64,000 nucleotides of DNA from a virus. Each line of letters starts with the position of its first letter. The first letter of the stretch is position 1. A program made the position numbers and the translations under genes. Below are positions 11,286 to 55,158 of this stretch, piece after piece. A model generated the notes under the pieces. The model was not told the DNA's origin. It did no database searches and worked only from the letters and a program-made list of their open reading frames with translations. Location: the IMG/VR virus record IMGVR_UViG_3300045988_149625. One strand, given 5' to 3'.

Positions 11286-12484
11286 TAGATAATATATTAG
11301 TGGCAAAATTTATAACAAATAATACATTAAAAGAGTTTAAAGATTTAGTTGGGGAAGGAGATTATGTGGATATTACAGGGGTCGACATTCAAGAGGGTGA
11401 CAAATTTGTTAATGGGGATGCTATTCATTGTGAGGGCGATTCATTATCCAAGGAAGGTGTAAAAGCACTTTATCTGATGCTAGGCAGTGCGTGTAATATG
11501 TCTTGCAGACATTGTACACAAACTCCTATTAAAGGTAATGTTGCTTTTCCTACTACTGAGTTAAGTAAGGATGTACTAGATTTTATAGTAAATTGGGATA
11601 AAAATGGCGGTGGAAGGTTATATTTTTGGGGCGGTGAACCTTTACTTTATTGGAATACAATAAAGAAACTTATAGAAGAGTTTGAAAAAATGGGAATGAG
11701 AAATACTTCTTATCGCATTTTCACCAATGGTCTATTACTTTCAAATTCCATTGTAGACTTTTGTAACAAACATAATATATGGGTAATTATGAGTTATGAT
11801 GCACCTAACCCCTTAGCTGCAAGAAACGCCATGCCGTCAGAGAGAAATATAGAAGCTTTCTTGTTGGCAGAAAAAAGAACAGTAAATGGTGTATACAATG
11901 CCTTAAACTGTGATATGGTAGCTGCTTTTAAATACTTGGAGTCAAAATTTCCTAATACTGAGGTAACTCTAGGGTTTATAAATGTATTATGGGATATACC
12001 AAAAGACTTATACGCTTTTGGAAAAGGCGAAGTAAGAAAGGCGGTAAAAGATTTATTTGAATATTATAAAGAAACAAGGGATTCAAATGTACACAGGTGG
12101 TTTGAAACTAAACTTAGAAGAGGGAATTACTTTTCCATTGAAGAATTTATGCTTTCCCCATTTCCTCCCTGTGCACCTGGGCGTATCTCTTTATCTATAG
12201 ATTTTGCAGGTAATATAATAAGATGCCACAATGACGATAAAGTGGTTGCAAATATTAAAGATGATTATTCAGATATATTAAAAGCACATGAAATGGAGTG
12301 GCTAAAGTTATTGCCAAGAAATTGTGCAGAATGTGAATGTCTACCTTTGTGCAGGTCAATTTGTCCAATAGCCTATAAGAAAGAAAACAAAGAAGAATTT
12401 GTACAATGTGATTATATAAGGGAGTTTTTTAGCGCGGTGCAGGAATGTGCCGATGATTTTTGGAGAATGGAAGGTGAGATGTAA
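11261..12484 (+). CDS. Radical SAM enzyme with C-terminal SPASM-like Cys-rich domain
   Basis: CNMSCRHC is a Cx3Cx2C motif. The GGEPLL motif is present. The C-terminus has CAECECLPLCRSIC plus additional cysteines. The true start may be an internal Met just before the motif. Confidence 0.75.
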   Translation: MVLQIGKLIDNILVAKFITNNTLKEFKDLVGEGDYVDITGVDIQEGDKFVNGDAIHCEGDSLSKEGVKALYLMLGSACNMSCRHCTQTPIKGNVAFPTTELSKDVLDFIVNWDKNGGGRLYFWGGEPLLYWNTIKKLIEEFEKMGMRNTSYRIFTNGLLLSNSIVDFCNKHNIWVIMSYDAPNPLAARNAMPSERNIEAFLLAEKRTVNGVYNALNCDMVAAFKYLESKFPNTEVTLGFINVLWDIPKDLYAFGKGEVRKAVKDLFEYYKETRDSNVHRWFETKLRRGNYFSIEEFMLSPFPPCAPGRISLSIDFAGNIIRCHNDDKVVANIKDDYSDILKAHEMEWLKLLPRNCAECECLPLCRSICPIAYKKENKEEFVQCDYIREFFSAVQECADDFWRMEGEM

Positions 12485-14419
12485 ATGGCAAGCTTTCATA
12501 ACTGGACAGGTGATGAATTAATTGATACACAAGTCCCACAGTTTTTAAATGAAGATAATGCAGCAACACAGGAGAAATTAGACACTAAATTTAATAAATC
12601 CTTAGATATAGCAGAAGCCTCAGACTTAAACAATTTTAAGGATGAGGGGTTCTACTGCTGTAATTCTAATTCTCGTGCTGAAACTATTTTAAATTGTCCT
12701 ACTAATTATGCTTTCGGTTTAATGGTATGGGGTAAAGGCGAAATAGTCTATCAAGAAGTGCGCGAATTTAACAGAGGCTCTAACCAAGATTACAATAACT
12801 GTTGGAGAAGAAGTTATTCTGGGGGCGGACAAGGTGTGTGGTCTAACTGGCAGAAAGTGGCTTATGCAGCTACTACTTTAGCAGAATACGGAATAACAGA
12901 CGGTATGGGCAAGAACGCCACAAACAGTGTGGGTGTGACAGATATTATTAAAAGAAGTATTAATACGTCGTACTTGCGTTTAACAGGTGGCAATACATTT
13001 GATAAAAGTGCAACTCTTCAACTCTGCGGAGGTACTTATGCAACAAACGCAGGACAGTTTTTATTAAAAGCAGCAGATTCAGCACACTCAGCAACTCTTT
13101 CAGGTAATCCTTCTGGGCTACTTAAATGGAATGATAAAAATATAGTACGTTCAGTAAATAATTCTGTTGCAGATGAACATGGTAATGTAACTTTACTGTT
13201 CCCCGACTCAGATGTAACGCAGGAAGGCGCGGGGTACTGGAAGCCTAATGAATCAGTACAAGAAGGGGATATACGTTATGTGTATGGTAGAGGAAACACA
13301 GGTGTTGTTTTAAAATGTGTGAAAGCAGGAATAACAGGAGCAGAATTACCAGATTTAGAGGCTGCTTCAAATGCTGTGCAATTAGTAACAGAAACTACTA
13401 CTGAGGTAAAACCTTTTGATATATTGGATTATGTATCACAAGTACCAGAATATTACACACGCCCTAGTTTGTATACAGTTTCAAAAAAATCTATAACTAT
13501 ACCTAAGGGGTTACGTGTAAGAATTGGTGATAAAGGTTATGAGAGTGTTAGTACAACTACATTAAGCACTACATCTTTGGGAAGTTTGGCAGCAAAAGAT
13601 GTTTATATATATGCTTGTGCTCCTATTACTTTATCTACTGAGCCAATATTTGTACTTTCATTAAATAGTACAGTACCTAGTGGGTATACCGCAGAAAACA
13701 GTCGCAAGATTGGCGGTTTTCATTGCTTATGTGCAGATGTTGGTACAATAAGTGGACATACTTTAAGTGGTTATGTAGCAGGTGACATACTTCCTGCTTC
13801 TGCATGGGATTTAATTCATCGTCCACGATGTTCCCCCGAAGCAATGGTGTATTGTGATACGGTGGACTTTTGGGTCGATATATATTTGGATAGTTGGGAT
13901 GGTAACAAATTAGTATCTGTATACAAAGGTGTTACAGCAGACGGAACTTCCACTAAAAAGTTTCATGGTGAGCTTTTTGTAGATGAGCTTGCAAAATTGA
14001 ATAAAAGACTACCTCCAAGAAGAGTATTTCAAGCAATAATGAAAGGCTCAAATGAACGCACCAATGTTAAAGGTTCGAAAGACGTAAATACTACTGGTGG
14101 TAATGTAGATACAGCAGGTCGAAGAATGATAAGTAATTATGGTTGTGAAGATGGCTGCGGTTTCTTGTGGCAATGGTCTGATGAACTAGGTTTTGCAGGT
14201 GGTAGTGCATGGACAGATTCAGTATATAATTCAAGTGTCGATTCTGAAAGAATTGGACAAACTTATGGAACTTTGTATAGAGCTGCGCTGGGCGGTTGCT
14301 GGGTTCACGGCGGTTCTTGTGGTTCGCGGTCGGTGTTTTGCAGCCATTCCTCGGCTCTTGTCAGTGCTTATTTTGGCGGTCGCGGCGCTTGCGAGCCGAA
14401 GGTCGCAAAGTTCTATTAG
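12485..14419 (+). CDS. DGR target protein: tail fibre / receptor-binding protein with C-terminal variable region
   Basis: 644 aa. The last ~40 codons (nt 14276-14394) are the VR copy of the downstream TR. The C-terminus GGCWVHGG...YFGGRGAC is typical of DGR C-type-lectin-fold variable proteins. Confidence 0.85.
   Translation: MASFHNWTGDELIDTQVPQFLNEDNAATQEKLDTKFNKSLDIAEASDLNNFKDEGFYCCNSNSRAETILNCPTNYAFGLMVWGKGEIVYQEVREFNRGSNQDYNNCWRRSYSGGGQGVWSNWQKVAYAATTLAEYGITDGMGKNATNSVGVTDIIKRSINTSYLRLTGGNTFDKSATLQLCGGTYATNAGQFLLKAADSAHSATLSGNPSGLLKWNDKNIVRSVNNSVADEHGNVTLLFPDSDVTQEGAGYWKPNESVQEGDIRYVYGRGNTGVVLKCVKAGITGAELPDLEAASNAVQLVTETTTEVKPFDILDYVSQVPEYYTRPSLYTVSKKSITIPKGLRVRIGDKGYESVSTTTLSTTSLGSLAAKDVYIYACAPITLSTEPIFVLSLNSTVPSGYTAENSRKIGGFHCLCADVGTISGHTLSGYVAGDILPASAWDLIHRPRCSPEAMVYCDTVDFWVDIYLDSWDGNKLVSVYKGVTADGTSTKKFHGELFVDELAKLNKRLPPRRVFQAIMKGSNERTNVKGSKDVNTTGGNVDTAGRRMISNYGCEDGCGFLWQWSDELGFAGGSAWTDSVYNSSVDSERIGQTYGTLYRAALGGCWVHGGSCGSRSVFCSHSSALVSAYFGGRGACEPKVAKFY
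14276..14394 (+). repeat. DGR variable region (VR)
   Basis: 119 bp, collinear with TR at 14492-14610. All 23 mismatches in the aligned 116 bp fall at TR adenines. The 3' 26 bp (ggcggtcgcggcgcttgcga...) are identical to TR and GC-rich, like an IMH element. Confidence 0.9.
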
Positions 14420-14423
14420 AACT
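14409..14423 (+). promoter_or_regulatory. Hairpin immediately downstream of VR (agttcta t tagaact)
   Basis: Perfect 7-bp inverted repeat 14 nt after the end of VR homology, spanning the target stop codon. It is analogous to the DGR target-recognition hairpin. Confidence 0.4.
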
Positions 14424-14491
14424 AGGTATACGGCTACATGAAGTTGTTAAGGAACACGAAGTAGTCTTGAATATACTGGGTTGTGGTTGTT

Positions 14492-14610
14492 AAAAGAGCT
14501 AAACTAGGCGGTAACTGGGATAACAGCAGTTCTTGTAGTTCGCAGTCAGTGAATTGCAACAATTCCTCAGCTAATGTCAATGCTAATTATGGCGGTCGCG
14601 GCGCTTGCGA
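14492..14610 (+). repeat. DGR template region (TR)
   Basis: Adenine-rich (AAC/AAT codons) invariant copy of VR, located between the target gene and the RT. The ORF-track call 14483..14695 across this region is an artefact of TR copying coding sequence. Confidence 0.9.
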
Positions 14611-14865
14611 TACGGAGAGAGCTATTCCTTCGGCTGAACCACAATCCATTCTAGCAGAGAAATACTGTATAGAAAAACACACAACAGGAGTATAGAAGGG
14701 CTAGTAGTGTAAACGAACGTCATTCTATAAAACTCCGTATCTTTAAATAAAGGAGAAATAAACTTGAAAAGAATTGGGAATTTATGAACTAAAATTATAG
14801 ATAAAGAAAATATTAAGGAGAGTATTTTAAGCGCTGCAAAACATAAGAAAAAGCGCCCTGCGGTA

Positions 14866-16158
14866 ATGAAGGTACTCAATAATATAGACGAATATGTAGA
14901 AAAGATTCACAAATTGTTAGTAAACAAGGAGTATAAAGTTTCGGAATATTATATAAAAGCAATTTATGAGCCTAAGCTAAGGCTTATTTACATATTACCC
15001 TTTTATCCAGATAATATAATATTTCACTGCATAATGAGGGTATTAGAGCCTATATGGGACAGTAGGTTTATTTATGATACTTATTCATGCAGGAAGGGTA
15101 AGGGGCAACATAAAGGAATGTTAAAGAGCACTATATACGTAAAGAATTACAAATACTGCTTAAAATGTGATATAAGTCAGTTTTACCCAAGCCTTAATCA
15201 TAGAATACTAAAGGAAAGTTTCCGTTGGAAAATCAAAGATAAGGACGTATTGGAGCTACTTGACTTAATAGTAGATAGTGTTTCTGTGCGGGAAAGGAAT
15301 CTAGATTTTTTAAAGTGCTGCAAGGCAAGTGATAAACATATGATGGAACAGAAGCTTCAAACATTAAAAGAAGAGTTCCCAGAAGGAGATTTCGGTGTGC
15401 CTATTGGTAATTATCCTTCACAATGGTTCGGAAACCTTTATATGAACCCTTTAGATAACCTTATTAAGTACTGTTTCCATGCAAAAGCATATGTAAGATA
15501 CTGCGACGATTTTGTTGTTTACAGTAATGATAAAAAGTGGTTACATAGTGTAGCTGCGGAGATAGAGAACTTTTGTAAGGAAAGATTAAAATTAAAGATG
15601 AGTAAGTGTCGGGTATTTCCTACGAAGTGTGGAGTAGATTTCTTAGGGTATAAAGCATTTCCCAGTGGTAAGATTCTTTTGCGTAAAAGGACAGCAAAAA
15701 GAGTCCATAAACAAATAAAAGCATTATGGAAAGAGCTATCTTATGGGAACTATGAACAAATGCTTTCTAAAGTGGGAAGCAGAATGGGGTATTTAAGGTA
15801 CGCTAAAAGTTATAATTTTAGATTACAAATAAAGATTAAAGAGTTGGAAAGGGAACTAAAAAGGAGGATTAGTATGGTAGGTTATCCAAAAAATTTAAGC
15901 ACAAAAGAAGATTATGAGTACGTGAGAACACATTTCCCTAAAAGTGATTGGCAGAAAGACTTTGAAAGTCTTTTACCTCGCAAGGAATGGTTCTTCATTG
16001 AAGAAACTAAGGTTAATAAAAAAGAAGATGCTACTCATAAAACAGAACCCTCTGACGATGAAGGGGTATTCTATCGTTATGAATTGAGGGGGGTAAGTAA
16101 GGCAGCAGAAATTGGATATACGGTAGAAGAAGTAGAGAAGATTCTAAGGAGTGAATAA
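14866..16158 (+). CDS. DGR reverse transcriptase
   Basis: YCDDFVVY is the YxDD motif. IGNYPSQWFGN is the DGR-specific GxxxSQ motif. The N-terminal RT-like sequence (..ENIKESILSAAKHKKKRPAV) continues in frame upstream to 14788 without an ATG. Confidence 0.9.
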   Translation: MKVLNNIDEYVEKIHKLLVNKEYKVSEYYIKAIYEPKLRLIYILPFYPDNIIFHCIMRVLEPIWDSRFIYDTYSCRKGKGQHKGMLKSTIYVKNYKYCLKCDISQFYPSLNHRILKESFRWKIKDKDVLELLDLIVDSVSVRERNLDFLKCCKASDKHMMEQKLQTLKEEFPEGDFGVPIGNYPSQWFGNLYMNPLDNLIKYCFHAKAYVRYCDDFVVYSNDKKWLHSVAAEIENFCKERLKLKMSKCRVFPTKCGVDFLGYKAFPSGKILLRKRTAKRVHKQIKALWKELSYGNYEQMLSKVGSRMGYLRYAKSYNFRLQIKIKELERELKRRISMVGYPKNLSTKEDYEYVRTHFPKSDWQKDFESLLPRKEWFFIEETKVNKKEDATHKTEPSDDEGVFYRYELRGVSKAAEIGYTVEEVEKILRSE

Positions 16159-36578: not shown

Positions 36579-36860
36579 ATGAAGGAAGTAATTTTCAGAG
36601 TAAGCAGCATTAGCAATGTTAAAAAGCTTGCAGGAAGTATTGCACACACTGTAAAAGGTGACGGAGAAACCGTAGCAGCAAATGTTGTGCTGAATTGCTG
36701 TGGTGCATCAGCAGTGAGTCAAGCAGTTAAAGCAGTTGCAGTTGCTCGTGGATTTCTAGCCTCTAATGGTAGGGATTTGGTTGTAAGACCTGGGTTCGAT
36801 ACCGCTTTTATAGAGGGTGAAGAAAGAACAGTTATCAAACTTTTTATAAGTTTGAATTGA
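36579..36860 (+). CDS. spoVS: SpoVS (stage V sporulation protein S) homologue
   Basis: GSIAHT..NCCGASAVSQAVKAVAVARGFLASNGRDLVVRPGFDTAFIEGEERTVIKLFI is near-collinear with bacterial SpoVS (~86 aa). Confidence 0.75.
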   Translation: MKEVIFRVSSISNVKKLAGSIAHTVKGDGETVAANVVLNCCGASAVSQAVKAVAVARGFLASNGRDLVVRPGFDTAFIEGEERTVIKLFISLN

Positions 36861-36903: not shown

Positions 36904-37302
36904 ATGTACAATAATTTTTTTACTACTGTACGTGGTGGTTCAAGGTATGTAATTTTAATAGGAAATCTTGCTATTAAATTCCCATACCTACGTTTTCCAT
37001 ATCACGGACGTAAGCAAAACTTGAAGGAGTGGGAATACAGGAATAAAAGCAAGTATTTAGCTAAATTATATATTTCATTCCCTTTTGGTTGGTGCAATGT
37101 AATGGAGAGGGTGCAGCCCTTAGCTAAGTCTTTAAGCAGTGTGGATTGCACCAATTTGATAAGAGCTTATTTTAAGAATAAAGTTACAGGTGATGAGCTT
37201 GCTTTTTTATTGGAGGATAGCACCTTGGAAAACTTTGGTACTAAAAACGGTAGGATAGTTAAGCTTGACTGGGGAGGTTTTGGGCGAAGTGAAAGTATGT
37301 GA
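36904..37302 (+). CDS. Hypothetical protein
   Basis: 132-aa ORF. Confidence 0.3.
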   Translation: MYNNFFTTVRGGSRYVILIGNLAIKFPYLRFPYHGRKQNLKEWEYRNKSKYLAKLYISFPFGWCNVMERVQPLAKSLSSVDCTNLIRAYFKNKVTGDELAFLLEDSTLENFGTKNGRIVKLDWGGFGRSESM

Positions 37303-37849
37303 AATTTATTCGGCTTTACAGGGGGAGGGCAGGTATACAGGATATGCAACGACTTTTATACAAGAGCCTATTGATTTAGCCAAAGGCACAGATTGGTCAA
37401 TAGATAGGATTCTCTCAAAAGTAAATAAATTAGGGAACAGGCATGTTTGTATAAAAGGTGAAACGCTTTTGCAGGAAGATAGTTATACACTTGTATATGA
37501 GTTGTTAGCCTACTCATATATTGTAACTATGGAAACGTCTTGTAGAATCCCTTTAGAAGATTGTTTATATGACAGAACTTATGCTTACAATGTAATTATA
37601 AACTGTGCTAATGAAAATATCTTAAATAATTTAAGATTATTGCACAGTAATGATGAAGTTAAATTCGTAATAAAAGATGATTCTGATTTTGATTATGTAA
37701 AGAAAGCTTTAAAGAAATACCCAACGTCTGCTATGGTTACACTTTATCCTTTTAAAAATGATTTAAATATCTTTAAAAAAATAGAAGATTTCTTAATGAA
37801 AAACCGTTTAAATGCAAGAGCAGGTTTAAAGTTACATAAATTGATTTAG
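37265..37849 (+). CDS. QueE-like protein lacking the radical-SAM cysteine motif
   Basis: EIYSALQGEGRYTGYATTFIQ matches the QueE N-terminal signature (EIFxSxQGEGxxxGxPxxFxR), and VCIKGETLLQ matches the ITGGEPLL motif. The segment where Cx14CxxC should be has no Cys. Confidence 0.4.
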   Translation: MTGEVLGEVKVCEIYSALQGEGRYTGYATTFIQEPIDLAKGTDWSIDRILSKVNKLGNRHVCIKGETLLQEDSYTLVYELLAYSYIVTMETSCRIPLEDCLYDRTYAYNVIINCANENILNNLRLLHSNDEVKFVIKDDSDFDYVKKALKKYPTSAMVTLYPFKNDLNIFKKIEDFLMKNRLNARAGLKLHKLI

Positions 37850-37856
37850 AAAAGTG

Positions 37857-37885
37857 TTGACAATACCTTTAAGGTGTGCTATAAT
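37857..37885 (+). promoter_or_regulatory. Consensus sigma-A promoter (TTGACA-17-TATAAT)
   Basis: ttgacaatacctttaaggtgtgctataat. Confidence 0.6.
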
Positions 37886-37906
37886 ATACACATAAGGAGG
37901 TAGGTT

Positions 37907-38305
37907 ATGGAATACACTAAAGAAAACGTAGTAAAAATTGTAGAAGATTTTAAAGACCTAATTTTAGCCATTGAAATGGAACGCAGAATCCGTTATGATG
38001 CTGTACATGAGAATGATTGCGCTTTAGGGGATATTCGACATTTTTGTGAGCTGGAATATCCTACGGAGCGCAGTATGCGCACTAAAATTTGTCAATTAAT
38101 GCGTGATATCAGCAAGAAAAGGCGTGAGGACAAAGACTTCTTAGATGTCACACAGCCTTTGGCAGAATTTCTTTCTGGCTCACCTAATTTAAAGGTAAAT
38201 TTAGGCAAAACAACTAATAACATGAAAAAAGCGTTGGTTAAAACACAGGGGGAACGTGTTTACGTTCCCAGAGTGCTTAATGATTTATTTAAAAAGGAGA
38301 TTTAA
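37907..38305 (+). CDS. Hypothetical protein
   Basis: 132-aa ORF with an AGGAGG RBS. Confidence 0.35.
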   Translation: MEYTKENVVKIVEDFKDLILAIEMERRIRYDAVHENDCALGDIRHFCELEYPTERSMRTKICQLMRDISKKRREDKDFLDVTQPLAEFLSGSPNLKVNLGKTTNNMKKALVKTQGERVYVPRVLNDLFKKEI

Positions 38306-38429
38306 AAATGCAAAAAAGATTACACACTAAAAATTGGAACACTAAACCTAAAAATAGAGAATTACCCGCTATTTTTCAAGCTTTTAATCTAAGACAGTTT
38401 CAGAAAGCATTTATCGGAGGTTCTAAAAA

Positions 38430-38777
38430 TTGTTAATTACCAATATTAAAATTTATGGACTAGAAGAATCCATTTATGCAAGTGGGTATCCAATGCTTTC
38501 AAAACCACCTACTAAAGAAGAGTTTGAGAGTGGGGTATCTGATGTAACAACGAATATTTTTATGCGTGAAACTGTAGGAGCAAAAGCAGCAGGTGCACAT
38601 ATTAAAAGGGCTTTAAAGCTTGGCAGTGCAGCCGCAGGAACTGGGCACAATAACTTTTTAAAGGGAATTATTGTGCAAATGGATGTTAATGCACCGCAGT
38701 ATTGGTGGCAACAGGCACAGCGTTATCACTGGTTCGATTTCGTTAGCTCGAAGGGCGTTTTAGTAGGTAACTATTAA
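38430..38777 (+). CDS. thyX: ThyX-like flavin-dependent thymidylate synthase, exon 1
   Basis: VQMDVNAPQYWWQQAQRYHW aligns to ThyX FHVKAPIFVARQWFRHR. The ORF then runs into a stop at 38775. The exon probably ends ~38760. Confidence 0.5.
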   Translation: MLITNIKIYGLEESIYASGYPMLSKPPTKEEFESGVSDVTTNIFMRETVGAKAAGAHIKRALKLGSAAAGTGHNNFLKGIIVQMDVNAPQYWWQQAQRYHWFDFVSSKGVLVGNY

Positions 38778-39110
38778 AATTATGAATTGGTGAACCTAGA
38801 AATCTAGGGTGTGCGACTTATGTCGTGCTAACGGTAAGAGTTAAATAAGACTGGGAATATGACAATTATTCTCTTTAGCCATAGGCGAATACGCTCTCTA
38901 AGAGAAGCTAAGGACTTTCGTAAGTTAGCTTGCTAATACCGTGCTAAGTTTTTCTATTCTCATGTAATTTGAGAATAGATTAAAAAGTGTAACGACTAAC
39001 CGAAGTATTAACATACTTCAAGAGGTTTAAGGTGAAATTCCTTATTCCGTAGCGCCAATTACCCTATAAGGGTAAAGAGATAGTCTAATCCCACTATTAA
39101 ATTAGTGTTA
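38761..39110 (+). mobile_element. ORF-less group-I-like intron in thyX
   Basis: ~350 bp non-coding insert between two halves of one ThyX homologue. It contains R-like (acgactaacc) and S-like (gatagtcta) P7 elements. Boundaries are approximate. Confidence 0.5.
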
Positions 39111-39449
39111 AAGTACGCCGAAAGGCGGGGTAGAAATGCAATGAGTAAGGTACATTGCCTTACAAAAATGGATATTGACAGTATGTGTGACAGCACTGTA
39201 ACGGAAACAGCGAAGCTCAATTTAGTTGGGGCAATTCAAGATTACACTGAGGGCAAGATTGACTTTGACACTATGATGTGTAATGTTCCTATGGGATTGC
39301 ATTTAACTGCAAGAATGACAACAAATTATTTGCAGCTTAAAACGATGTATGCACAAAGACAGCATCACAAATCTAAAGAGTGGCAGGAGTTCTGTAAGTG
39401 GGTAACATATTTACCTATGAGCTATTTAATTACAGGAGGTACTATGTAA
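39105..39449 (+). CDS. thyX: ThyX-like thymidylate synthase, exon 2
   Basis: VPMGLHLTARMTTNYLQLKTMYAQRQHHKSKEWQEF aligns to ThyX [36 protein letters not shown]. The frame is open from 39084. Confidence 0.5.
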   Translation: MLKYAERRGRNAMSKVHCLTKMDIDSMCDSTVTETAKLNLVGAIQDYTEGKIDFDTMMCNVPMGLHLTARMTTNYLQLKTMYAQRQHHKSKEWQEFCKWVTYLPMSYLITGGTM

Positions 39450-39766
39450 TGAGTAATTCTAAGGAGTTTATACAATTTCAAAAGGATTACATCTTGTTTC
39501 CTTGGGGAGAGCAAGAAGTTATTGGGTATTTTAAATGCCCCGTTTGTGGTAAGCCAATTTATGTTTTAGAGTTTTTTGGCGGTGAGGAAGAGCACTATTA
39601 CTATCTTTATCATTTTAATTCTTGGGATGATAAGAAATTATGTCCTATTGCGCAGGATGACTGTTCCACACCTTTCACTATCCTAGGTGGTATTACCTAC
39701 GATAATTTTGAAGAAATTGTAGATACATGGGCGTATGGTATCCGTACAGTGGAGTGTACAGAATGA
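39398..39766 (+). CDS. Hypothetical CxxC protein
   Basis: 122 aa with FKCPVCGKP. Confidence 0.3.
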   Translation: MGNIFTYELFNYRRYYVMSNSKEFIQFQKDYILFPWGEQEVIGYFKCPVCGKPIYVLEFFGGEEEHYYYLYHFNSWDDKKLCPIAQDDCSTPFTILGGITYDNFEEIVDTWAYGIRTVECTE

Positions 39767-40176
39767 TTTATGCAATAGATTTTGATGGTACGCTAGTTAA
39801 AAATCAATATCCCTATATAGGGGAAGAGCAAAAGATTTCTACACACATGCTTGACAAGACAAAAATTGAGAAGTTTATTCCTGCCACAGACTTTTGCAAG
39901 GAATTGCAACGTGAGGGACATAAACTTATTTTGTGGACTTGCAGAGAGGGTGAGCTTTTACAAGAGGCATTACGCTGGTGCCTTTATAGAGGGTTAATCT
40001 TTGATGCAGTAAATGATGATTTGCCACAAGTAAAGCAATGTTTTCCAGATGAACTTAAATCGTGGGAAGGTTCAGAACGTGCAAGAAAAATCCATGCAGA
40101 TGTGTATATTGATGATAAAGCAGTTGTACCGATTTGTGAGGATAAAGATAAAAATGTACGTTATCGCGAGTTTTGA
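39763..40176 (+). CDS. Small HAD-superfamily hydrolase-like protein
   Basis: MIYAIDFDGTLV is HAD motif I (DxDGT). The start was trimmed to the internal ATG. Confidence 0.4.
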   Translation: MIYAIDFDGTLVKNQYPYIGEEQKISTHMLDKTKIEKFIPATDFCKELQREGHKLILWTCREGELLQEALRWCLYRGLIFDAVNDDLPQVKQCFPDELKSWEGSERARKIHADVYIDDKAVVPICEDKDKNVRYREF

Positions 40177-40466
40177 AAATTTTAAAGGAACAAGTTATCA
40201 TGTGCTAGATGTTTTATCTTTTCATTTTAATGGTTCTAAAGGAACTTGCGTTATCGTGGGGGGTATTCCCCCCATTTTAGAACCATTTTTAAAGGATTGG
40301 GCAGATAAGAATGATATACATTTAGTACAGTGTACTAAAGACGATTTTAAAGACTTAGATATGCTTTTTGGAGATATTTCAGTCATTATCTTTGGCATGA
40401 ACACATTTCTTCTAAAGAAAAGTTTAGAATTAAGTCTTAGATATTATATTATAAAAGAGGAATAAA

Positions 40467-41063
40467 ATGACTAATATTATATGTATGAGTGGCGGTTATG
40501 ACAGTACCGTACTTTATGATTATCTGAAAAAAGATGAACATTTAGATTTAAAGGTTTACCATGCGCTTTATACTAAAGTTGAAGGTGGCACATATAATTT
40601 AAATGAGTTTAAACGTCTTTCACAAAAGTTTAATAATGAAATAGATTATTTAGCGCACTTTAACTTACATTTATTAGGTGAGGATTACATTCCGAACAGA
40701 AACACTCTATTTGTAATGGATATCATTGCAAAGCTTTATGTTGGAGAGCCTTTAAATATTTACCTGGGAATTATTAAGAATTTTCCTAGATACCCAGACT
40801 GTACACATGAATGGTTGGAGGCTCTTAATTCATTTTTAAGCATTGAATTTCCAAATGTTAAAGTTTTAGCACCCTTTATAGACCTTACAAAAGACGATGT
40901 TTTCAAGATTGGATGCAAGCTTGGCGTAAAATTAGAGGATACTTTTTCATGTAACTTTTCTGATAATGGTGAGCCTTGCGGTGTTTGTGAGAATTGTAAA
41001 TGGCGCGCAGCGCATATGTACCCTAGTTATTTTTTGAAGGAGGGGAATGAAATTGGCAAATAA
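40467..41063 (+). CDS. queC: 7-cyano-7-deazaguanine synthase QueC
   Basis: PP-loop SGGYDST, NRNT, YPDC, and the C-terminal zinc motif CGVCENCKWR. Confidence 0.75.
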   Translation: MTNIICMSGGYDSTVLYDYLKKDEHLDLKVYHALYTKVEGGTYNLNEFKRLSQKFNNEIDYLAHFNLHLLGEDYIPNRNTLFVMDIIAKLYVGEPLNIYLGIIKNFPRYPDCTHEWLEALNSFLSIEFPNVKVLAPFIDLTKDDVFKIGCKLGVKLEDTFSCNFSDNGEPCGVCENCKWRAAHMYPSYFLKEGNEIGK

Positions 41064-41271
41064 ATCTAATTCGGAGAAGAAAAATTCTGTTCCGCAGATT
41101 AAAATTGCAGCAAGAAGTGTTGAAAAGACTAAAGGTGGATTTTTAAGTATTAAGCAGGGAAGAACAGGCGACACAAATAACTTACAGACTAATCCATATT
41201 ATAGATTTATGAATAGAACTTCTTGGAAAACTAAGAATAAAAAAGGCATTACACCTTGGGGGCGTATTTAA
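41047..41271 (+). CDS. Small basic protein
   Basis: 74-aa Lys/Arg-rich ORF. Confidence 0.25.
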   Translation: MKLANKSNSEKKNSVPQIKIAARSVEKTKGGFLSIKQGRTGDTNNLQTNPYYRFMNRTSWKTKNKKGITPWGRI

Positions 41272-43166
41272 AAATGAAAGGTGATTTTACGCTTTTATTA
41301 TCTGGTGTTGAGCCTAAGGAAAACTGGGAAGTAGCATCTTCTGTAACAAAGAATGTGCTACTTTCCTATAAGTATATTCGTAAACGTGGATTAGATGAAA
41401 TTGTAAAGCGTTTAAAGTCCCATAGGGGAATGAAAGTTTTAATTGATAGTGGTGCTTATACATTCTTTAATGATAAAGAGTTTAATAATAAGACTATTGA
41501 ATGGTGGGAAGATTATTTAGTAAAGTATATTAACTTTATACGTGAGTACCGTGACTATATCTTTGCCTGCGTGGAACTAGATATTGATAGTATTGTTGGC
41601 GAGGATATTGTAGAAGGTTGGCGTGAAAAGTATTTCTACCCATTAGAAAGAGAAGGAATAAATGTTATTTATCTTTATCATTTAGATAAAGATTTATCGC
41701 ATTTTGAAAAGCTTTGTAAGCAGCATCCTTATGTTGGATTTTCGTACATGGAGATAAAGCATACTATTGAGGATATGGGGGAAAGAGAAAATCTCATTTC
41801 ACAACTATTCCAAATAGCTAAAAGGTATAAATCTGCTATTCATGGTTTTGCAATTACAGGTAATAAGCTACTATTGAGTTATCCATTCTTTTCCGCAGAT
41901 TCTACTACGTATTTAACAGGTGCGCAATTTGGTACAATTACCTACTTTGAAGCAGGTCAAATGAAGCATCTTGAAAAAACACAGTGGAAAACAGAATATA
42001 TGGAAAAACTAAAGGCGTTGGGGTTAAAGGAGAAATTGCTTGAAATAGAATCTCCTTATGAGCTTATAAGAGCAAATGCCATTAGCTATAAGAAATTTGA
42101 AGAATACGTTAAAAATGTTATGCGGCCACAAAAATATTGGGAAGCACGTTCAAACACTAAATACTCTATTCCAGATGCATCATGGTTTGAAGGGGATATG
42201 CAAGATTGGCAGGAACGCTTAGAACTAGCAGGAATTGATACAAACATTCCTCAAACAGCGGGTGAAACAATTTTACATGATGCTTATATTTTTCTAAATG
42301 AGCCTAAAGAAGCCAAGAATTATGAACTTGACGACCTTGTGGGTTTATGTGCAATGTTTGGTGCAACAGGTGCAAACTATAATACAAAAGATAAGTGTAT
42401 AAAGTTTTTGCAGGAAGCTTTCAAAGAACATGTTGACGGTATGCGAAACGAGTTGTCAAATTTGCAGAATCCAGAAGAGGGGCAGCGTATAGCACTTGAA
42501 CGTGAGGACTATATTACAGAGAAAGAGTATTTAGAGGTTGAAATGAGTAGGGAAGAATGTGGAGAACTTCTACCTGCATTATTAACTTCTGGATATGATA
42601 AAGATGATGTTGAAAAATCTTTAATAGAACAAGGTATTAAACCAATCTATGATAAAAATGGTAATATCTTAAAAGGTATCAAAAAGGTTAAGCGACAGAA
42701 AAAGCTTTCCACAAGGGCTTTGCCTAGACTTTCTTGTGATAGATGCGTAATGGCAGCAAACTGTACAGAGTACCAAGCAGGATATATTTGTGCATACGAT
42801 AAAATGTTCCGCAGATTTAACACCAGGGAACAAGAAGATGTTATACAGGGAATGACAGCTATTGCTGATTTAGCAATAGAACGTGCTCAAAAAGCCTTTA
42901 TGCTTGAAACAGCTATGGGTGGGACACCTACAAAGGCTACTTCACAGGCAATGCAGGATGCTTTTGGATATTTAACTAAGTTAAAAGAATTGCAAGATGA
43001 AGTAAAAGGACGACCAGTTATGGTTTCACAAACAAAAATCAAGGGCGGCAGTATCGAACAAACTGTTGTTCATGGTGCTAATCCTCAATCTGGCGGCATT
43101 TTAGAGCGAATTTTTATGGAAGATACAGACGATGAAAAAACAGTAGAAGCGGAGGTAGTTAAATGA
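41256..43166 (+). CDS. dpdA: DpdA / tRNA-guanine-transglycosylase-like protein (7-deazaguanine DNA insertion enzyme candidate)
   Basis: TGT-fold signature VLLSYKY...VLIDSGAYTF (compare TGT DSGGFQ). The C-terminus has a Cys cluster (CDRCVMAANC...C). It is co-located with QueC and QueE-like genes. Confidence 0.5.
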   Translation: MGAYLKMKGDFTLLLSGVEPKENWEVASSVTKNVLLSYKYIRKRGLDEIVKRLKSHRGMKVLIDSGAYTFFNDKEFNNKTIEWWEDYLVKYINFIREYRDYIFACVELDIDSIVGEDIVEGWREKYFYPLEREGINVIYLYHLDKDLSHFEKLCKQHPYVGFSYMEIKHTIEDMGERENLISQLFQIAKRYKSAIHGFAITGNKLLLSYPFFSADSTTYLTGAQFGTITYFEAGQMKHLEKTQWKTEYMEKLKALGLKEKLLEIESPYELIRANAISYKKFEEYVKNVMRPQKYWEARSNTKYSIPDASWFEGDMQDWQERLELAGIDTNIPQTAGETILHDAYIFLNEPKEAKNYELDDLVGLCAMFGATGANYNTKDKCIKFLQEAFKEHVDGMRNELSNLQNPEEGQRIALEREDYITEKEYLEVEMSREECGELLPALLTSGYDKDDVEKSLIEQGIKPIYDKNGNILKGIKKVKRQKKLSTRALPRLSCDRCVMAANCTEYQAGYICAYDKMFRRFNTREQEDVIQGMTAIADLAIERAQKAFMLETAMGGTPTKATSQAMQDAFGYLTKLKELQDEVKGRPVMVSQTKIKGGSIEQTVVHGANPQSGGILERIFMEDTDDEKTVEAEVVK

Positions 43167-45322
43167 GAAAATTAGCAAGTGTAGAAATTATAGATAAATT
43201 AGAGCCTATCCCAAATGCTGATAGAATTTTAAAAGCAACTGTAAAAGGTTGGGAATGTGTTGTAAGTAAGAGTGACAACTTTCAGCAAGGCGATAAAGTA
43301 GTGTATATTGAAGTAGATTCTGTTCTCCCTGCAAGACCAGAATTTGCCTTCCTTAAAGACAGAAAGTACCGCATTAAGACTATTAAGTTGCGTAAACAGA
43401 TTTCACAAGGTTTGATTCTGCCTTTAAGTTACTTGCCAAACAAAGAATACGCTGTTGGGGAAGATGTAACTAAAATATTGAATATTAAGAAATTTGACCC
43501 GCAGCTTGAAGCAGAGAATAAAATCATGGCAGTTGCTGCCCCAAAAGGAAGATTCACATTCTTATGGAAGCCTTTAATGCGTTTCCGTTGGTTTAGACGC
43601 TTATATGCAAAATTCCATGTACAGAATGAAAAGTTCCCTACTTACATTGCAAGCAAGACTGATGAAGAACGCTGGCAGAATATTACTGACAAGCTTGAAC
43701 AATGGAGAGATACAAATGTCCCCCTGATTTGTACAGAGAAGGTCGACGGCTGCCATTCATACAGAAGTAGTGTAATTACAAATAAGGGGTTCTTGCCAAT
43801 AGGTAAAATTGTAAATGAAAAACTTGATGTGGAAGTTCTTACTTATAATGAAGAATCCAAATGTTGTGAGTTTAAACCTATTATAGATTATCATAAAATC
43901 TTATGTACAAAGCCTACATACCGCATTGGTGTAGGAAGTCGTGGTAAGGGAAATAAGCCTAAATATATTGAGTGTACCTCTAACCATGAATTTTTAACAC
44001 AAGACGGCTGGAAGCAAGCGGATGAGCTTACTTTAGATGATACTCTAATGCACTATTTTTCTGTTATTAACTATGATATTCAAAGTATTATCTTAGGCTG
44101 CTTACTAGGGGATAGCAGCATTAATGGCAATAGAAAAGGTACATCTTACTTAACTGTACTGTTTGGGCACTCTGAAAAACAAGTAGAATATTTTAATTAT
44201 AAGAAGCAGCTTTTTGGAAATCTTTTTATTGAACAAAAGGATACTTTAAGTGGATATGGCAGTGTAATTAAACATGGTATTTTACGTTCCAATGAGGGTG
44301 TTCGTAGACTTATTGAGGAGTATTGTTTGGTAGATGATAAATTTGCGGTAACACAAAAATATTGCGATGCTTTAACACCTATGTCATTGGCATTTTGGTA
44401 TATGGACGACGGAAGCCTTTTAACAGGTACTTTACGACCAAAAGCAATTTTAAATACGCAAGCATATGATTTAAATACTATCAAAATGCTTGTAGAAACC
44501 TTACGTAACCGCTTTGGTTTAGAGGCATTTATTGGAGATAAAGAAGTTTATAAAGGATACGTTATTTATTTCTCTGTGGAATCTACCCTTAAATTTGCAC
44601 AATTAATTGCCCCCTATGTATGCGAAAGTATGAGATATAAATTACCAGAACAGTATAGAAGTTATGGATGTGCTTTAAATAGTGTAAATACAGAAGTGCA
44701 AGATATTTTACCCACAAAAATTCTCTCCATTGAAGAGTTTGAAGCAGGTCATTTTGGCAAGCATATGTATGATTTAACTATTCAAGATAATCATAATTAT
44801 TTTGTACATAGTATTTTAACTCATAATTGTTCCTCAACCTTCTTTTTAGACGGCGGCACTTTTGGGGTTTGCAGTAGAAATATTTGGCTACGTAAGGAAG
44901 ATAATTCGCCCTATTGGGAAATTGCAAGACGCTTTCAGATTGAGGAAGCTTTAAAGGAGATTCAAAAGTGCTTTGGTTTTAGAAAAATTGTTTTACAAGG
45001 TGAGATTATTGGGCAAAATATCCAAGCTAATAAATATAAGATTAGCGGGTATGATTTTTATGCCTATAATTTAATCCTTGACGGCATTAAAGTTTCACAA
45101 GTAAAAATGGAAGAGCTTCTTAAAGAATTTCGCATTAAAACAGTGCCTGTAGTTTATAAGCATATCAATGTGCCAAGTGACTTACAGACCTTAAACAATC
45201 TTGCGAGTGGTAAAAGTGTATTACTTGATACACAAGAGCGTGAAGGTATCGTTTGCAGAAATTATGAGCAGGGGATTTCTTTTAAAGCGATTTCCCCAAC
45301 TTTCTTGCTAAAAGAAGAATAA
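43163..45322 (+). CDS. ATP-dependent RNA/DNA-ligase-family nucleotidyltransferase containing an intein
   Basis: KxDG motif TEKVDG is directly followed by an intein. The extein resumes CSSTFFLDGG. Confidence 0.55.
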   Translation: MRKLASVEIIDKLEPIPNADRILKATVKGWECVVSKSDNFQQGDKVVYIEVDSVLPARPEFAFLKDRKYRIKTIKLRKQISQGLILPLSYLPNKEYAVGEDVTKILNIKKFDPQLEAENKIMAVAAPKGRFTFLWKPLMRFRWFRRLYAKFHVQNEKFPTYIASKTDEERWQNITDKLEQWRDTNVPLICTEKVDGCHSYRSSVITNKGFLPIGKIVNEKLDVEVLTYNEESKCCEFKPIIDYHKILCTKPTYRIGVGSRGKGNKPKYIECTSNHEFLTQDGWKQADELTLDDTLMHYFSVINYDIQSIILGCLLGDSSINGNRKGTSYLTVLFGHSEKQVEYFNYKKQLFGNLFIEQKDTLSGYGSVIKHGILRSNEGVRRLIEEYCLVDDKFAVTQKYCDALTPMSLAFWYMDDGSLLTGTLRPKAILNTQAYDLNTIKMLVETLRNRFGLEAFIGDKEVYKGYVIYFSVESTLKFAQLIAPYVCESMRYKLPEQYRSYGCALNSVNTEVQDILPTKILSIEEFEAGHFGKHMYDLTIQDNHNYFVHSILTHNCSSTFFLDGGTFGVCSRNIWLRKEDNSPYWEIARRFQIEEALKEIQKCFGFRKIVLQGEIIGQNIQANKYKISGYDFYAYNLILDGIKVSQVKMEELLKEFRIKTVPVVYKHINVPSDLQTLNNLASGKSVLLDTQEREGIVCRNYEQGISFKAISPTFLLKEE
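43751..44827 (+). mobile_element. Intein (359 aa) with LAGLIDADG homing endonuclease
   Basis: N-terminal Cys (CHSYRSSVITNKGFLPIGKIV, block A). LAGLIDADG blocks ILGCLLGDSS and LAFWYMDDGS. C-terminal FVHSILTHN followed by C+1. Confidence 0.75.
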
Positions 45323-54723: not shown

Positions 54724-55158
54724 ATGTGGTTTGAAGTAATTGTGAAAGATGCTGAAAAGGAAATTAAGCTTTCCTTGCCGTGTGATGAGCAGGAATTAAA
54801 AGACAGCTATACTATTGTAAGCTGTGAAAATAGCTGGGATTATGAGAATGCGGATTTGACTTTGAAAGAGCTGAATAATCTTGCGCAAGATTTGCAAGAT
54901 ATTGAGGATAACGGCGATGAAGATTGGCTTGAAGCTTATATTGAAGCTACTGGCTGTGATTTAAATATTGCCGTTGATAAATATGATACATCGACTTTTT
55001 ATCATGATATGAGCTTGGTAGACGTTGCATATGATATTGTAGAAGAGTGTTACAACCTGCCAGAGAACTTAGAGCGTTATTTTGATTATGAAGCTTTTGC
55101 AAGAGATTTGGAGATTGAAGGTTATACAGAAACATACTATGGAACTATTTTAGTTTAA
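54724..55158 (+). CDS. Hypothetical acidic protein
   Basis: 144 aa, Asp/Glu-rich. Confidence 0.3.
   Translation: MWFEVIVKDAEKEIKLSLPCDEQELKDSYTIVSCENSWDYENADLTLKELNNLAQDLQDIEDNGDEDWLEAYIEATGCDLNIAVDKYDTSTFYHDMSLVDVAYDIVEECYNLPENLERYFDYEAFARDLEIEGYTETYYGTILV

Follow-up and report, generated by a model that had tools for sequence, protein, structure and literature searches.

Can a phage gene cluster whose QueE homologue lacks the [4Fe-4S] motif still serve to replace guanine in DNA, and what would such a homologue be doing there? The question is raised by positions 37265-43166 of a 64,000-nucleotide stretch of viral DNA (IMG/VR record IMGVR_UViG_3300045988_149625), referred to here as the window. 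An earlier note, made from the sequence alone, had read this locus as a phage DpdA-type 7-deazaguanine cluster, and our analysis agrees: the three open reading frames that it described, at 37265, 40467 and 41256, are all present and form a 7-deazaguanine DNA-modification module of the Bacillus phage BCD7 type, with DpdA, QueC and a QueE homologue (Table 1). The BCD7 homologue of the window DpdA, gp021, is catalogued as DpdA (PMC6884629). The very low E-values of the DpdA, QueC and QueE matches point to homology and not to chance motif matches. The module belongs to a gut phage with a genome of ~100 kb, of which we read 35 kb beyond the window from the near-identical contig IMGVR_UViG_3300045988_143506 (99% identical, 99-kb genome). 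As to the host, the one hint comes from a TnpB with 87% identity to a Mitsuokella jalaludinii TnpB.

Table 1. Features of the module and its surroundings, in window coordinates.
Feature	Position	Strand	Basis
SpoVS homologue	36579..36860	+	Pfam SpoVS E 7e-24
Conserved protein, phrog_4301	36904..37302	+	PHROG 4301 E 4e-19
QueE-derived protein without [4Fe-4S] motif, 194 aa from TTG at 37265	37265..37849	+	BCD7 QueE, TIGR04349
Conserved protein, phrog_2717	37907..38305	+	PHROG 2717 E 1.5e-9
Divergent ThyX-fold gene, exon 1 (phrog_6721)	38430..38748	+	PHROG 6721 E 4e-23
Group I intron, 390 nt, no ORF	38749..39138	+	Rfam RF00028
ThyX-fold gene, exon 2	39139..39449	+	PHROG 6721 E 2e-21
HAD-type phosphatase, BT0820 family	39727..40176	+	NCBIfam NF046079 E 9e-29 (below its cut-off), PHROG 1238
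QueC-family ATP-dependent enzyme, short variant, 198 aa	40467..41063	+	Pfam QueC E 1.7e-24
Small basic protein, 74 aa	41047..41271	+	Orthologues between QueC and DpdA
Long DpdA-type DNA guanine transglycosylase, 636 aa	41256..43166	+	PHROG 887, BCD7 gp021 match, hhalign to 9g DpdA

ORF 41256, probably translated from the ATG at 41274, had been assigned to the TGT/DpdA fold. It groups with DpdA both by its match to PHROG 887 (E 1e-66) and by hhalign against the validated DpdA of phage 9g (probability 99.0, E 5.7e-18), with DSGA and S-x-DS-(S/T) aligned, and it is 33% identical to BCD7 gp021 across 98% of its length. Residues D64, S65, G66, D109, H142, H196 and D215, which include the aspartates of the DSG and xDST motifs, are invariant across 21 DpdA homologues; at least 90% of these also have S216 and T217. 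A DpdA1-like catalytic domain (residues ~1-290) is followed by a helical linker domain (~300-405) and by a C-terminal Cys4 and helical module (~480-620). The C-terminal cysteine cluster reported earlier consists of C494, C497, C503 and C512, which are at least 90% conserved among the 21 homologues and invariant in all ten that have the C-terminal half. This module, which is also present in BCD7 DpdA, matches PHROG 6902 ('terminase small subunit') in eight of ten members (best E 8e-8) and probably serves in DNA binding or oligomerisation. The length of the protein, rightly singled out as unusual, is a family trait common to BCD7 (757 aa) and ~30 metagenomic homologues. The validated DNA preQ0 transglycosylases DpdA1 of Enterobacteria phage 9g and Escherichia phage CAjan have a homologous catalytic domain with DSG and S-x-DS motifs and are likewise associated with Que genes, but the 9g enzyme (317 aa) has no C-terminal extension, and identity to the window DpdA is only ~24-25%.

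The description of ORF 40467 as a clear, intact QueC also stands. It scores 87 bits against Pfam QueC (gathering score 22), matches the QueC of PDB entry 3bl5 (E 9e-8), and carries both an intact SGGYDS PP-loop and an intact Cys4 site (C-x10-C-x2-C-x2-C). Against TIGR00364 it reaches 76.6 bits, under the NCBIfam equivalog cut-off of 150; the YGQRH motif is absent from it, and its similarity to the CBASS QueC-like protein Cap9 nearly equals its similarity to QueC. Short QueCs (184-200 aa) also occur in relatives with intact QueD and QueE. Presumably, the window QueC converts CDG to preQ0 by way of ADG.

ORF 37265 is a QueE homologue, as proposed before: it aligns with BCD7 QueE from end to end at 34% identity (E 2e-33) and matches the NCBIfam QueE model TIGR04349 (E 1e-23), its orthologues starting at a Val-Lys ~14 codons inside the window ORF. 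In the alignment, a clean 13-residue deletion takes out the CxxxCxxC loop, the equivalents of E. coli C31, C35, C38 and T40 are deleted, five residues are missing from the MDIKCPSSG region, the residue equivalent to the substrate arginine Arg27 is Gln, and GGEP, which in E. coli holds the SAM-binding G94, has become (K)GET; Q13 and E15 are retained (roles according to PMC11142719), as are QGEG and the C-terminal LHK. No Pfam Radical_SAM match is found for the protein, while all intact relatives have one. On this alignment, the QueE derivative is predicted to be incapable of radical-SAM chemistry. It had been called cysteine-less, which is right for the cluster motif; five cysteines lie elsewhere in the protein. 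It had also been called catalytically decayed, a misleading term given purifying selection on the gene and the independent cluster-less QueEs described below. Its dN/dS is 0.098 against L006 and, at unsaturated dS, 0.035 against L004 and 0.099 against L005, compared with 0.11 for QueC and 0.065 for DpdA; the phrog_4301 gene has 0.04 and the small basic protein 0.10. Every clade member keeps the ORF intact, even at 76% identity, and it is present on 14 or more contigs. Since these values (0.03-0.10) are on par with those of QueC and DpdA, the crippled QueE is under equally strong purifying selection and is not a decaying relic.

BCD7 encodes a complete GTP-to-preQ0 pathway, with gp021 DpdA (YP_007005872), gp022 FolE, gp025 QueC, gp027 QueE and gp028 QueD (Hutinet 2019, PMC6884629 supplement), and its QueE has an intact CxxxCxxC. 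The window shares with it the gene order SpoVS ... QueE ... QueC, small basic ORFs and a long DpdA (QueC is 26% and QueE 34% identical), but differs in having no FolE, no QueD and a QueE without the cluster. Neither QueD nor FolE was found in the window by tblastn and phmmer with BCD7 and L009 queries, and neither is among the best 25 Pfam families listed for each set (the other window ORFs and the 35 kb beyond), a search that a very divergent copy could escape; the earlier note had not recognised them either, and this now extends across ~99 kb. Nor did the window and the remainder of the 99%-identical genome yield a second QueE. Four relatives whose DpdA is 45-68% identical (L009, L177, L178 and L179) all have a PTPS, a radical-SAM QueE, QueC, the small protein and a long DpdA, and no FolE was found in the 8-10 kb flanks read. 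The phrog_4301 gene always lies just upstream of QueE; its orthologues in L009 (9633-9998), L177 (4097-4492) and L178 (1415-1753) are each directly preceded by a Pfam PTPS (QueD) gene, and in the window QueD is absent from that slot. Because the more distant syntenic relatives examined all carry QueD and an intact QueE, the loss of QueD and of the QueE cluster is the derived state of one clade.

SpoVS is a conserved left-hand neighbour of the cluster in most relatives (BCD7, L006, L009, L177, L178 and L184), and none is called in L179. The phrog_2717 gene follows QueE and has an orthologue in L006 (10620-11024); genes of comparable length come after QueE in L177 and L178. The small basic protein has orthologues of 72-77 aa, always between QueC and DpdA, in L006, L009, L177, L178 and L179, and in BCD7 and L184 two small ORFs (67-72 aa; those of BCD7 basic and Gly/Arg-rich) separate QueC from FolE, just upstream of DpdA. 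The HAD-type phosphatase is a neighbour of the cluster, a position that by itself demonstrates no link to the pathway. The split gene is a divergent ThyX-fold protein unrelated to the deazaguanine pathway: the model of the spliced protein has a pLDDT of 93.4, its top PDB fold matches are all ThyX, and L009 has a canonical ThyX at the same position. Its intron matches the whole RF00028 model, though at 41.5 bits (E 6.8e-9) it stays under the gathering score of 50. The last base is U in the 5' exon and G in the intron, and the two exons are in frame once spliced. An intron-less allele (exons 94-96% identical) lacks exactly 390 nt at this site, and in L006 the exons are contiguous (11254-11898).

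Further cluster-less QueE homologues (P0177, P0181, P0183, P0188, P0207 and P0279) were found, the cluster-less lineages falling in separate 50%-identity clusters. In a tree built on ungapped columns, the window clade groups with intact syntenic QueEs and a second group, clade B, with BCD7 QueE; joint monophyly of the two was recovered in 7% of 200 bootstraps. Besides the window clade, at least one further lineage, and probably two, thus came to a cluster-less QueE independently. In L184 and L182, the two contigs of a BCD7-like lineage in which the upstream gene is whole, the cluster-less copy directly follows a second, intact QueE of the B. subtilis type, and in L181 the C-terminal end of such a QueE is seen in the same place. 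In clade B, QGEG and the C-terminal QxHK motif are gone as well, which argues against a ligand-binding role common to both clades.

We think it moderately probable that the locus is a working BCD7-type guanine-replacement module in which the host makes the CDG, DpdA and QueC install preQ0 or a close derivative, and the QueE derivative is a non-radical accessory. The N-terminal TIM-barrel transglycosylase domain of DpdA would swap guanine in DNA for the free base, post-replicatively. QueC would use ATP and ammonia to turn CDG (7-carboxy-7-deazaguanine) into ADG and then preQ0, so that dPreQ0 would be the most likely product in DNA, with dADG also possible. Since QueD and FolE are absent and QueE is without its [4Fe-4S]/SAM machinery, the steps from GTP through H2NTP and CPH4 to CDG would be supplied by host FolE, QueD and QueE. 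There is precedent: in E. coli, 9g DpdA needs no other phage protein to put host preQ0 into DNA, and DpdA-only phages exist. Against this, some hosts of DpdA-only phages (Clostridium, Mycobacterium) have no preQ0 pathway (PMC6884629), and a host with queD and queE would probably have queC too, making the retention of QueC by the phage puzzling. Like DpdA-only and partial-pathway phages (Hutinet 2019, PMC6884629), this phage would rely on host-made 7-deazaguanine precursors. Unlike the DpdA-only ones, it has QueC and a QueE remnant, both maintained by selection, which would make CDG, and not preQ0, the compound it needs from the host. The most likely part for the QueE derivative in the module is, at a guess, an accessory one, for instance to bind a deazapurine intermediate or pass it on, or to partner QueC or DpdA.

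Alternatively, the derivative could have gained a new, non-radical catalysis on a deazapurine or pterin intermediate, the clade making a different 7-deazaguanine derivative. This would agree with strong purifying selection, with the retained substrate-contact Q and E of QGEG and the C-terminal LHK, with the change of the carboxylate-binding Arg to Gln in all five clade members, with faster evolution on the clade's stem (intact QueEs are 54-61% identical to one another but only 40-52% to the clade), an acceleration that DpdA does not show, and with the coexistence of a cluster-less copy and an active QueE in L184 and L182. DpdL offers a precedent, being a QueD paralogue without the catalytic Cys and a proposed CDG decarboxylase (Hutinet et al. 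2023, PMC10516641): it too is a preQ0-pathway paralogue that lost its canonical catalytic residue and is conserved inside phage deazaguanine clusters. However, DpdL has a T-fold and not a radical-SAM barrel, occurs where QueC is absent, and has a proposed reaction and an observed product link (dDG), both of which are lacking for the QueE derivative. The derivative shows no evident new cofactor or catalytic motif, the gene content demands no candidate reaction, the 13-residue loop deletion and the damage to the SAM motif better fit loss of an active-site lid than retooling, and, as clade B has lost the putative pocket residues, a common activity would need another site. We regard new catalysis as unlikely.

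It is quite unlikely that the gene is a functionless relic as yet undisrupted, with DpdA using host preQ0 and QueC dispensable too. The clade has deleted QueD altogether, so selection on the early steps has been relaxed, QueE retains none of its catalytic hallmarks, and DpdA-only phages are known (PMC6884629); but dN/dS equals that of neighbouring essential genes at saturated and unsaturated distances alike, no clade member has a disrupted ORF, and cluster-less lineages of independent origin are old enough to form separate clusters. A host target is highly improbable. QueE is a dimer, and a cluster-less copy might poison host QueE dimers, or bind flavodoxin or the division machinery, in a takeover or moonlighting independent of catalysis; the gene does lie in the early or middle region, where host-interaction genes, SpoVS among them, are found. 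In E. coli, QueE also acts in cell division, and the catalytically dead R27A still blocks septation (PMC11142719), showing that a protein built on the QueE scaffold can do work that does not depend on making CDG. This moonlighting, however, belongs to a catalytically competent enzyme and needs an enterobacteria-specific insertion, absent from B. subtilis QueE (PMC11142719), and nothing links it to phages. Moreover, the gene stays in the QueD-QueE-QueC-DpdA neighbourhood in every lineage, and a phage that poisoned host QueE would deprive its own QueC and DpdA of precursor.

The DpdA module type is thus already known; what is new here is a crippled QueE kept by selection, and its recurrence. That a cluster-less QueE is retained, and repeatedly so, suggests a previously undescribed role for this protein.

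Family searches confirmed homologues of DpdA, QueC and QueE in the window and found QueD and FolE absent. An earlier note had interpreted the region as a deazaguanine DNA-modification cluster with an intact QueC, a 636-aa DpdA/TGT-superfamily member carrying a C-terminal Cys cluster, a QueE-like ORF without the radical-SAM Cys motif, and no recognisable QueD or FolE. This interpretation was essentially right, the three ORFs being real and homologous to the families claimed. The cluster itself is of a known type; what is new is a QueE derivative that lacks its [4Fe-4S] cluster motif (hereafter cluster-less), is under selection and is recurrent. Coordinates of all features are collected in the table.

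Features of the module, of the remaining genome and of related loci
Feature	Sequence	Coordinates
Radical-SAM/SPASM protein	window	11261-12484
Diversity-generating retroelement	window	12485-16158
Variable repeat (VR)	window	~14279-14401
Template repeat (TR)	window	~14495-14617
Reverse transcriptase (RT)	window	14866-16158
SpoVS	window	36579-36860
QueE derivative	window	37265-37849 (+)
phrog_6721 gene, ORFs as split	window	38430-38777; 39105-39449
phrog_6721 gene, exons	window	38430-38748; 39139-39449
Group I intron (predicted)	window	38749-39138
37-nt match to phage c-st	window	39080-39116
37-nt match to window	Clostridium phage c-st	165583-165619
QueC	window	40467-41063
74-aa protein	window	41047-41271
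DpdA	window	41256-43166
RNA ligase with intein	window	43163-45322
Anti-restriction/DNA-modification candidates	window	54724-55158
Anti-restriction/DNA-modification candidates	L018	3845-4927; 7080-8114; 11467-12423
HNH endonuclease and 85-aa ORFs	L010	69-1113
TnpB	L097	4855-5964
Cluster-less QueE context	L184	9263-10564
Cluster-less QueE context	L182	17-1380
Cluster-less QueE context	L181	1-820
Cluster-less QueE context	L183	323-907
Cluster-less QueE context	L185	376-1394
QueC with apparent extra domain	L182	1712-3013

The QueE derivative is a full-length QueE homologue. TIGR04349 matches it over its full length (E 1.1e-23), the QueE of Bacillus phage BCD7 does so at E 2e-33, and its profile matches the QueE structures of E. 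coli, B. subtilis and B. multivorans at E 2e-19 to 2e-13. The TIGR04349 score (84 bits) is nevertheless below the cut-off of 300, and all other QueE models fall far under theirs. The CxxxCxxC (or Cx14CxxC) motif is absent, since a clean 13-residue deletion, common to the window protein and the homologues P0001-P0004, has removed the whole loop; the absence, seen in our QueE alignment, was confirmed by a regular-expression screen, and Pfam Radical_SAM gave no match to the protein. In the same alignment the Mg-binding Thr is gone with the deletion, the SAM-binding GGEP reads K-GET, the Arg for the substrate carboxylate is a Gln (TTFIQ vs TTFIR) and a further five residues are deleted in the MDIKCPSSG region, while QGEG keeps its Gln and Glu and the C-terminal LHK is still present. 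In E. coli QueE, G94 binds SAM, T40 binds Mg and R27 binds the substrate carboxylate (PMC11142719). Because CxxxCxxC, Thr, GGEP and Arg are lost, the QueE derivative, as judged from its sequence, cannot be a radical-SAM CDG synthase. Four cysteines (C62, C93, C100 and C115) are conserved in the window clade, which comprises the window, two IMG/VR contigs and the relatives L006-L008. An alternative Fe-S site formed by them is unlikely, as C62, C100 and C115 are also present in intact relatives and the other cluster-less lineage (clade B, see below) has no such set.

The earlier note had called this QueE apparently decayed in its catalysis, which holds for the lost radical-SAM motifs but not for the gene, which is under purifying selection. 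The dN/dS of the QueE-like ORF (Nei-Gojobori method) between the window and three relatives was 0.098 for L006 (pS 0.66, with synonymous sites near saturation), 0.099 for L005 (17.5 synonymous vs 7.5 non-synonymous changes) and 0.035 for L004 (7 synonymous vs 1 non-synonymous change), compared with 0.11 for QueC, 0.065 for DpdA and 0.07 for SpoVS. The ORF is unbroken in all members of the window clade and on at least 14 contigs. On the stem of this clade the protein evolved moderately faster (its identity to intact QueEs is 40-52%, vs 54-61% among the intact ones), and DpdA shows no comparable acceleration. The QueE derivative is not a decaying relic; it is kept by selection.

The preQ0 pathway encoded by the phage is incomplete. 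The FolE and QueD of BCD7 and the QueD of L009, used as queries, found no match in the window. The part of the genome outside the window, 35 kb, was rebuilt from a near-identical contig (as L010, L015, L018 and L097), and Pfam searches of all ORFs of the window plus these 35 kb revealed no GTP cyclohydrolase, PTPS, QueF or second QueE among the best 25 families listed per set; FolE and QueD were found in neither part. The only radical-SAM protein found in the two parts, a SPASM protein, was rejected as a replacement QueE, being peptide-maturase-like, located in the tail module and similar to QueE only at E 0.085. We also examined, via DpdA (45-68% identical) or QueE, four more distant relatives (L009, L177, L178 and L179), which share the order PTPS (QueD), phrog_4301 (missing in L179), radical-SAM QueE and, further downstream, QueC, a ~73-aa protein and a long DpdA. 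In L009, L177 and L178 the block is preceded by SpoVS, which L179 does not have there, and followed by an RNA ligase; no FolE lies near it in any of the four. The clusters of BCD7 and of L184, a BCD7-like locus, encode FolE also, whereas the window does not. The absence of QueD together with a cluster-less QueE is found only in the window clade, where L006-L008 stand at 76% QueE identity. This state is therefore derived, and the comparison of these loci indicates that a single lineage has lost QueD and hollowed out its QueE.

QueC has an SGGYDS PP-loop at residues 8-13 and a C-terminal four-Cys zinc site (C-x10-C-x2-C-x2-C), passes the Pfam QueC model (E 1.7e-24; 87 bits vs 22) and matches the B. 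subtilis QueC structure 3bl5 (E 9e-8). It scores below the NCBIfam equivalog TIGR00364 (76.6 vs 150.3), and CBASS Cap9 is nearly as similar to it (E 1e-6) as QueC itself. The YGQRH motif is missing from it, and likewise from the QueCs of relatives with full QueD and QueE.

A profile of 21 DpdA homologues aligned by hhalign with phage 9g DpdA, an experimentally validated enzyme (probability 99.0, E 5.7e-18, residues 31-250), and the window protein matched DpdAs of 9g-like phages (Nonagvirus) in tblastn (E about 1e-9) and PHROG 887 (E 1e-66). The TGT-type active-site residues D64-S65-G66 and D215 are invariant in the 21 homologues, S216 and T217 are conserved in at least 90%, and the two aspartate motifs (DSG and S-x-DS) align with DSGAF and SCDSS of 9g DpdA. 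Pfam gave no match to the window protein, the PDB searched with the profile gave none at E<=1, and a precomputed TGT domain was present in 0 of 30 homologues; to our knowledge, a Pfam TGT match does not define phage DpdA1, which is recognised by profile methods only. The match to BCD7 gp021, listed as a DpdA in the supplement of Hutinet 2019 (PMC6884629), covers 98% of the length of the window DpdA.

The family conserves the C-terminal 350 residues of DpdA, including four invariant Cys together with R543, E551 and G555. For this half Pfam was empty, PDB sequence profiles gave noise only, and the AlphaFold model was poor (mean pLDDT 59.9; confident only at residues ~305-405). A BFVD fold search returned no solid match; the best named one was labelled 'terminase small subunit' and came from a Gordonia phage (E 0.012, TM 0.18). 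Eight of 10 members match PHROG 6902, also labelled 'terminase small subunit' (best E 8e-8); this is the sole reproducible link, the fold search was uninformative, and we do not conclude that the module is a terminase subunit. It is probably a DNA-binding or oligomerisation domain. In this phage group QueC and DpdA are always separated by a gene for a small basic protein of ~74 aa that is under purifying selection; the corresponding region of BCD7 and L184 contains pairs of small ORFs, which in BCD7 are basic and Gly/Arg-rich.

An exhaustive phmmer search over 1.84 billion representatives and a subsequent motif screen yielded further full-length homologues of QueE without the cluster motif, namely P0177, P0181, P0183, P0188 and P0207, which form the BCD7-like clade B, and P0279. 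L184 has the BCD7-like order SpoVS, QueD, intact B. subtilis-type QueE, cluster-less QueE and, further on, QueC, FolE and a 725-aa DpdA. L182 carries the same pair, with the cluster-less copy directly downstream of the intact B. subtilis-type QueE, and in L181 the C-terminal end of such a QueE lies just upstream of that copy. QueC comes after the cluster-less copy in both and is also downstream in L183; in L185 the copy comes after QueD. The QueC of L182 is apparently fused to an extra radical-SAM-like domain (434+ aa, with CNMSCKHC after the QueC part), in an ORF that runs off the contig.

In a QueE tree based on 141 ungapped columns, with 200 bootstraps, the window clade is monophyletic (100%) and nests with the intact QueEs of syntenic loci, clade B (88%) has BCD7 QueE as its sister, and the two are jointly monophyletic in only 7% of the bootstraps. 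A first NJ tree, in which gaps were counted, had grouped all of them as would a single ancient cluster-less family. Since this grouping appears only when gaps are counted and is lost on ungapped columns, we treat it as an artefact of shared deletions. We conclude that there were at least two losses of the Fe-S site with the protein retained, and probably three. In those clade B loci whose upstream gene is readable, the loss occurred beside a putatively active QueE.

In the mechanism that we propose, the host would supply CDG, QueC would make the free base from it, and DpdA would exchange G in the phage DNA for this free 7-deazaguanine base; the latter two predicted activities form the supported core. 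CDG would have to come from the host because the phage has no FolE or QueD and no active QueE. Precedents for host supply are DpdA-only phages and the DpdA of 9g, which uses E. coli preQ0 (PMC6884629). The DNA product is most likely dPreQ0, with dADG or another derivative a less likely one that we retain because QueC is short, divergent and under the NCBIfam cut-off.

The QueE derivative itself probably has a non-radical accessory function. That it might be a neutral relic is at odds with a dN/dS of 0.035-0.099 and an ORF kept open throughout the clade, and the position of the clade B copy beside an intact QueE is likewise hard to reconcile with a neutral remnant. Another rival is a new catalytic role, for which DpdL would be the precedent among pathway paralogues (PMC10516641), and yet another is an action on the host. 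Clade B is also without QGEG and the C-terminal motif, and a ligand-binding role common to both lineages is therefore not obvious. We consider it possible, albeit rather doubtful, that cluster-less QueEs are a previously unrecognised, repeatedly evolved part of phage 7-deazaguanine clusters which shed the Fe-S/SAM machinery and was kept for a different job. If they are, they could carry a deazapurine or pass it on to QueC and DpdA or, alternatively, act as a new non-radical enzyme altering which base enters DNA, and the copy can stand alone (window clade, with host CDG) or beside a newly acquired canonical QueE (clade B).

Two ORFs between QueE and QueC are one phrog_6721 gene interrupted by a 390-nt ORF-less intron. 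The insertion matches RF00028 over its full length (E 6.8e-9), at 41.5 bits and thus below the gathering score of 50; the U/G splice-site rule is satisfied, splicing is predicted to restore the frame, and an intron-less allele lacks exactly 390 nt. Such alleles, 94-96% identical, are present in other samples. By these sequence features it is a probable group I intron. Rfam at gathering thresholds and a tRNA scan of the window gave no matches. Within the 3' part of the intron, a run of 37 nt shares 97% identity with a site in Clostridium phage c-st that carries no annotation, which suggests a related intron there. The model of the spliced protein (pLDDT 93) has a ThyX fold (Foldseek probability 1.00, TM up to 0.69, only ThyX among the best 50 matches listed); Pfam Thy1 does not match it, and the ThyX motif RHRxxxxxxxS reads RYH(W/F)xDFVSSxS. 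Its family is large and uncharacterised (1,676 homologues, no Pfam model). The gene adjoins QueE in L179, but we rejected it as a pathway member given its fold, a family of this size that is not tied to DpdA, and the canonical ThyX that takes the same position in L009. It is not part of deazaguanine synthesis and presumably belongs to nucleotide metabolism.

The window is phage DNA, with nearly all genes on the + strand, a GC content of ~35% and a positive GC skew throughout, up to ~60 kb. The contigs come from metagenome assemblies; two IMG/VR contigs of one sample (99 and 102 kb) match the window at 96-100% protein identity, megablast found no close GenBank phage at the DNA level, and BCD7 is the nearest isolated relative of the deazaguanine cluster. 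An IS605-type TnpB encoded by the near-identical genome outside the window shares 87% identity with one from Mitsuokella jalaludinii and 65-68% with those of Selenomonas. As a lead and not as proof, this single match points to a Selenomonadaceae host.

The same genome carries further elements. A diversity-generating retroelement comprises a 123-nt repeat pair and, downstream of it, a reverse transcriptase (Pfam RVT_1, E 2e-14). Nearly all mismatches within the pair are at adenines of its intergenic member; the variable member lies at the 3' end of a 644-aa tail-fibre-like ORF, and among the other window ORFs, which were scanned as a set, one matches the Pfam Mtd second domain. Adjoining the retroelement target among the tail genes, an unusual place, is the 407-aa radical-SAM/SPASM peptide-maturase-like protein. 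The RNA ligase (PHA02142 OB-fold plus RNA_ligase) bears an intein with a LAGLIDADG endonuclease; the ligases of relatives are intein-less (354-360 aa), and inteins also occur in their DNA polymerase, ThyX and RNR genes. Candidates for anti-restriction or DNA modification comprise ArdA, a C5 cytosine methylase, an N6/N4 methylase and two PAPS-reductase-domain proteins. An HNH endonuclease ORF of the near-identical genome lies just ahead of an 85-aa ORF that resembles, by eye only, the C-terminal part of a major capsid protein; the site may be a further intron or an insertion of a homing endonuclease.

Modifying DNA with 7-deazaguanines is a well-established way for phages to counter restriction, and the variety of these modifications has been put down to minor alterations of pathway paralogues such as Gat-QueC, QueF-L and DpdL. 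The surveys of phage 7-deazaguanine systems that we consulted neither annotate nor discuss a cluster-less QueE, which we put forward as a new candidate component: a QueE scaffold devoid of radical-SAM chemistry that selection has retained and that arose at least twice. Automated annotation is at risk here, as the PHROGs label of the QueE derivative, 'QueE-like radical SAM domain', would lead one to credit these phages, wrongly, with a self-sufficient preQ0 pathway. How much of its precursor synthesis a phage can leave to the host could be studied in the window clade as a natural experiment, and the base carried by these abundant, presumed gut, phages bears on the reading of restriction and nanopore sequencing data.
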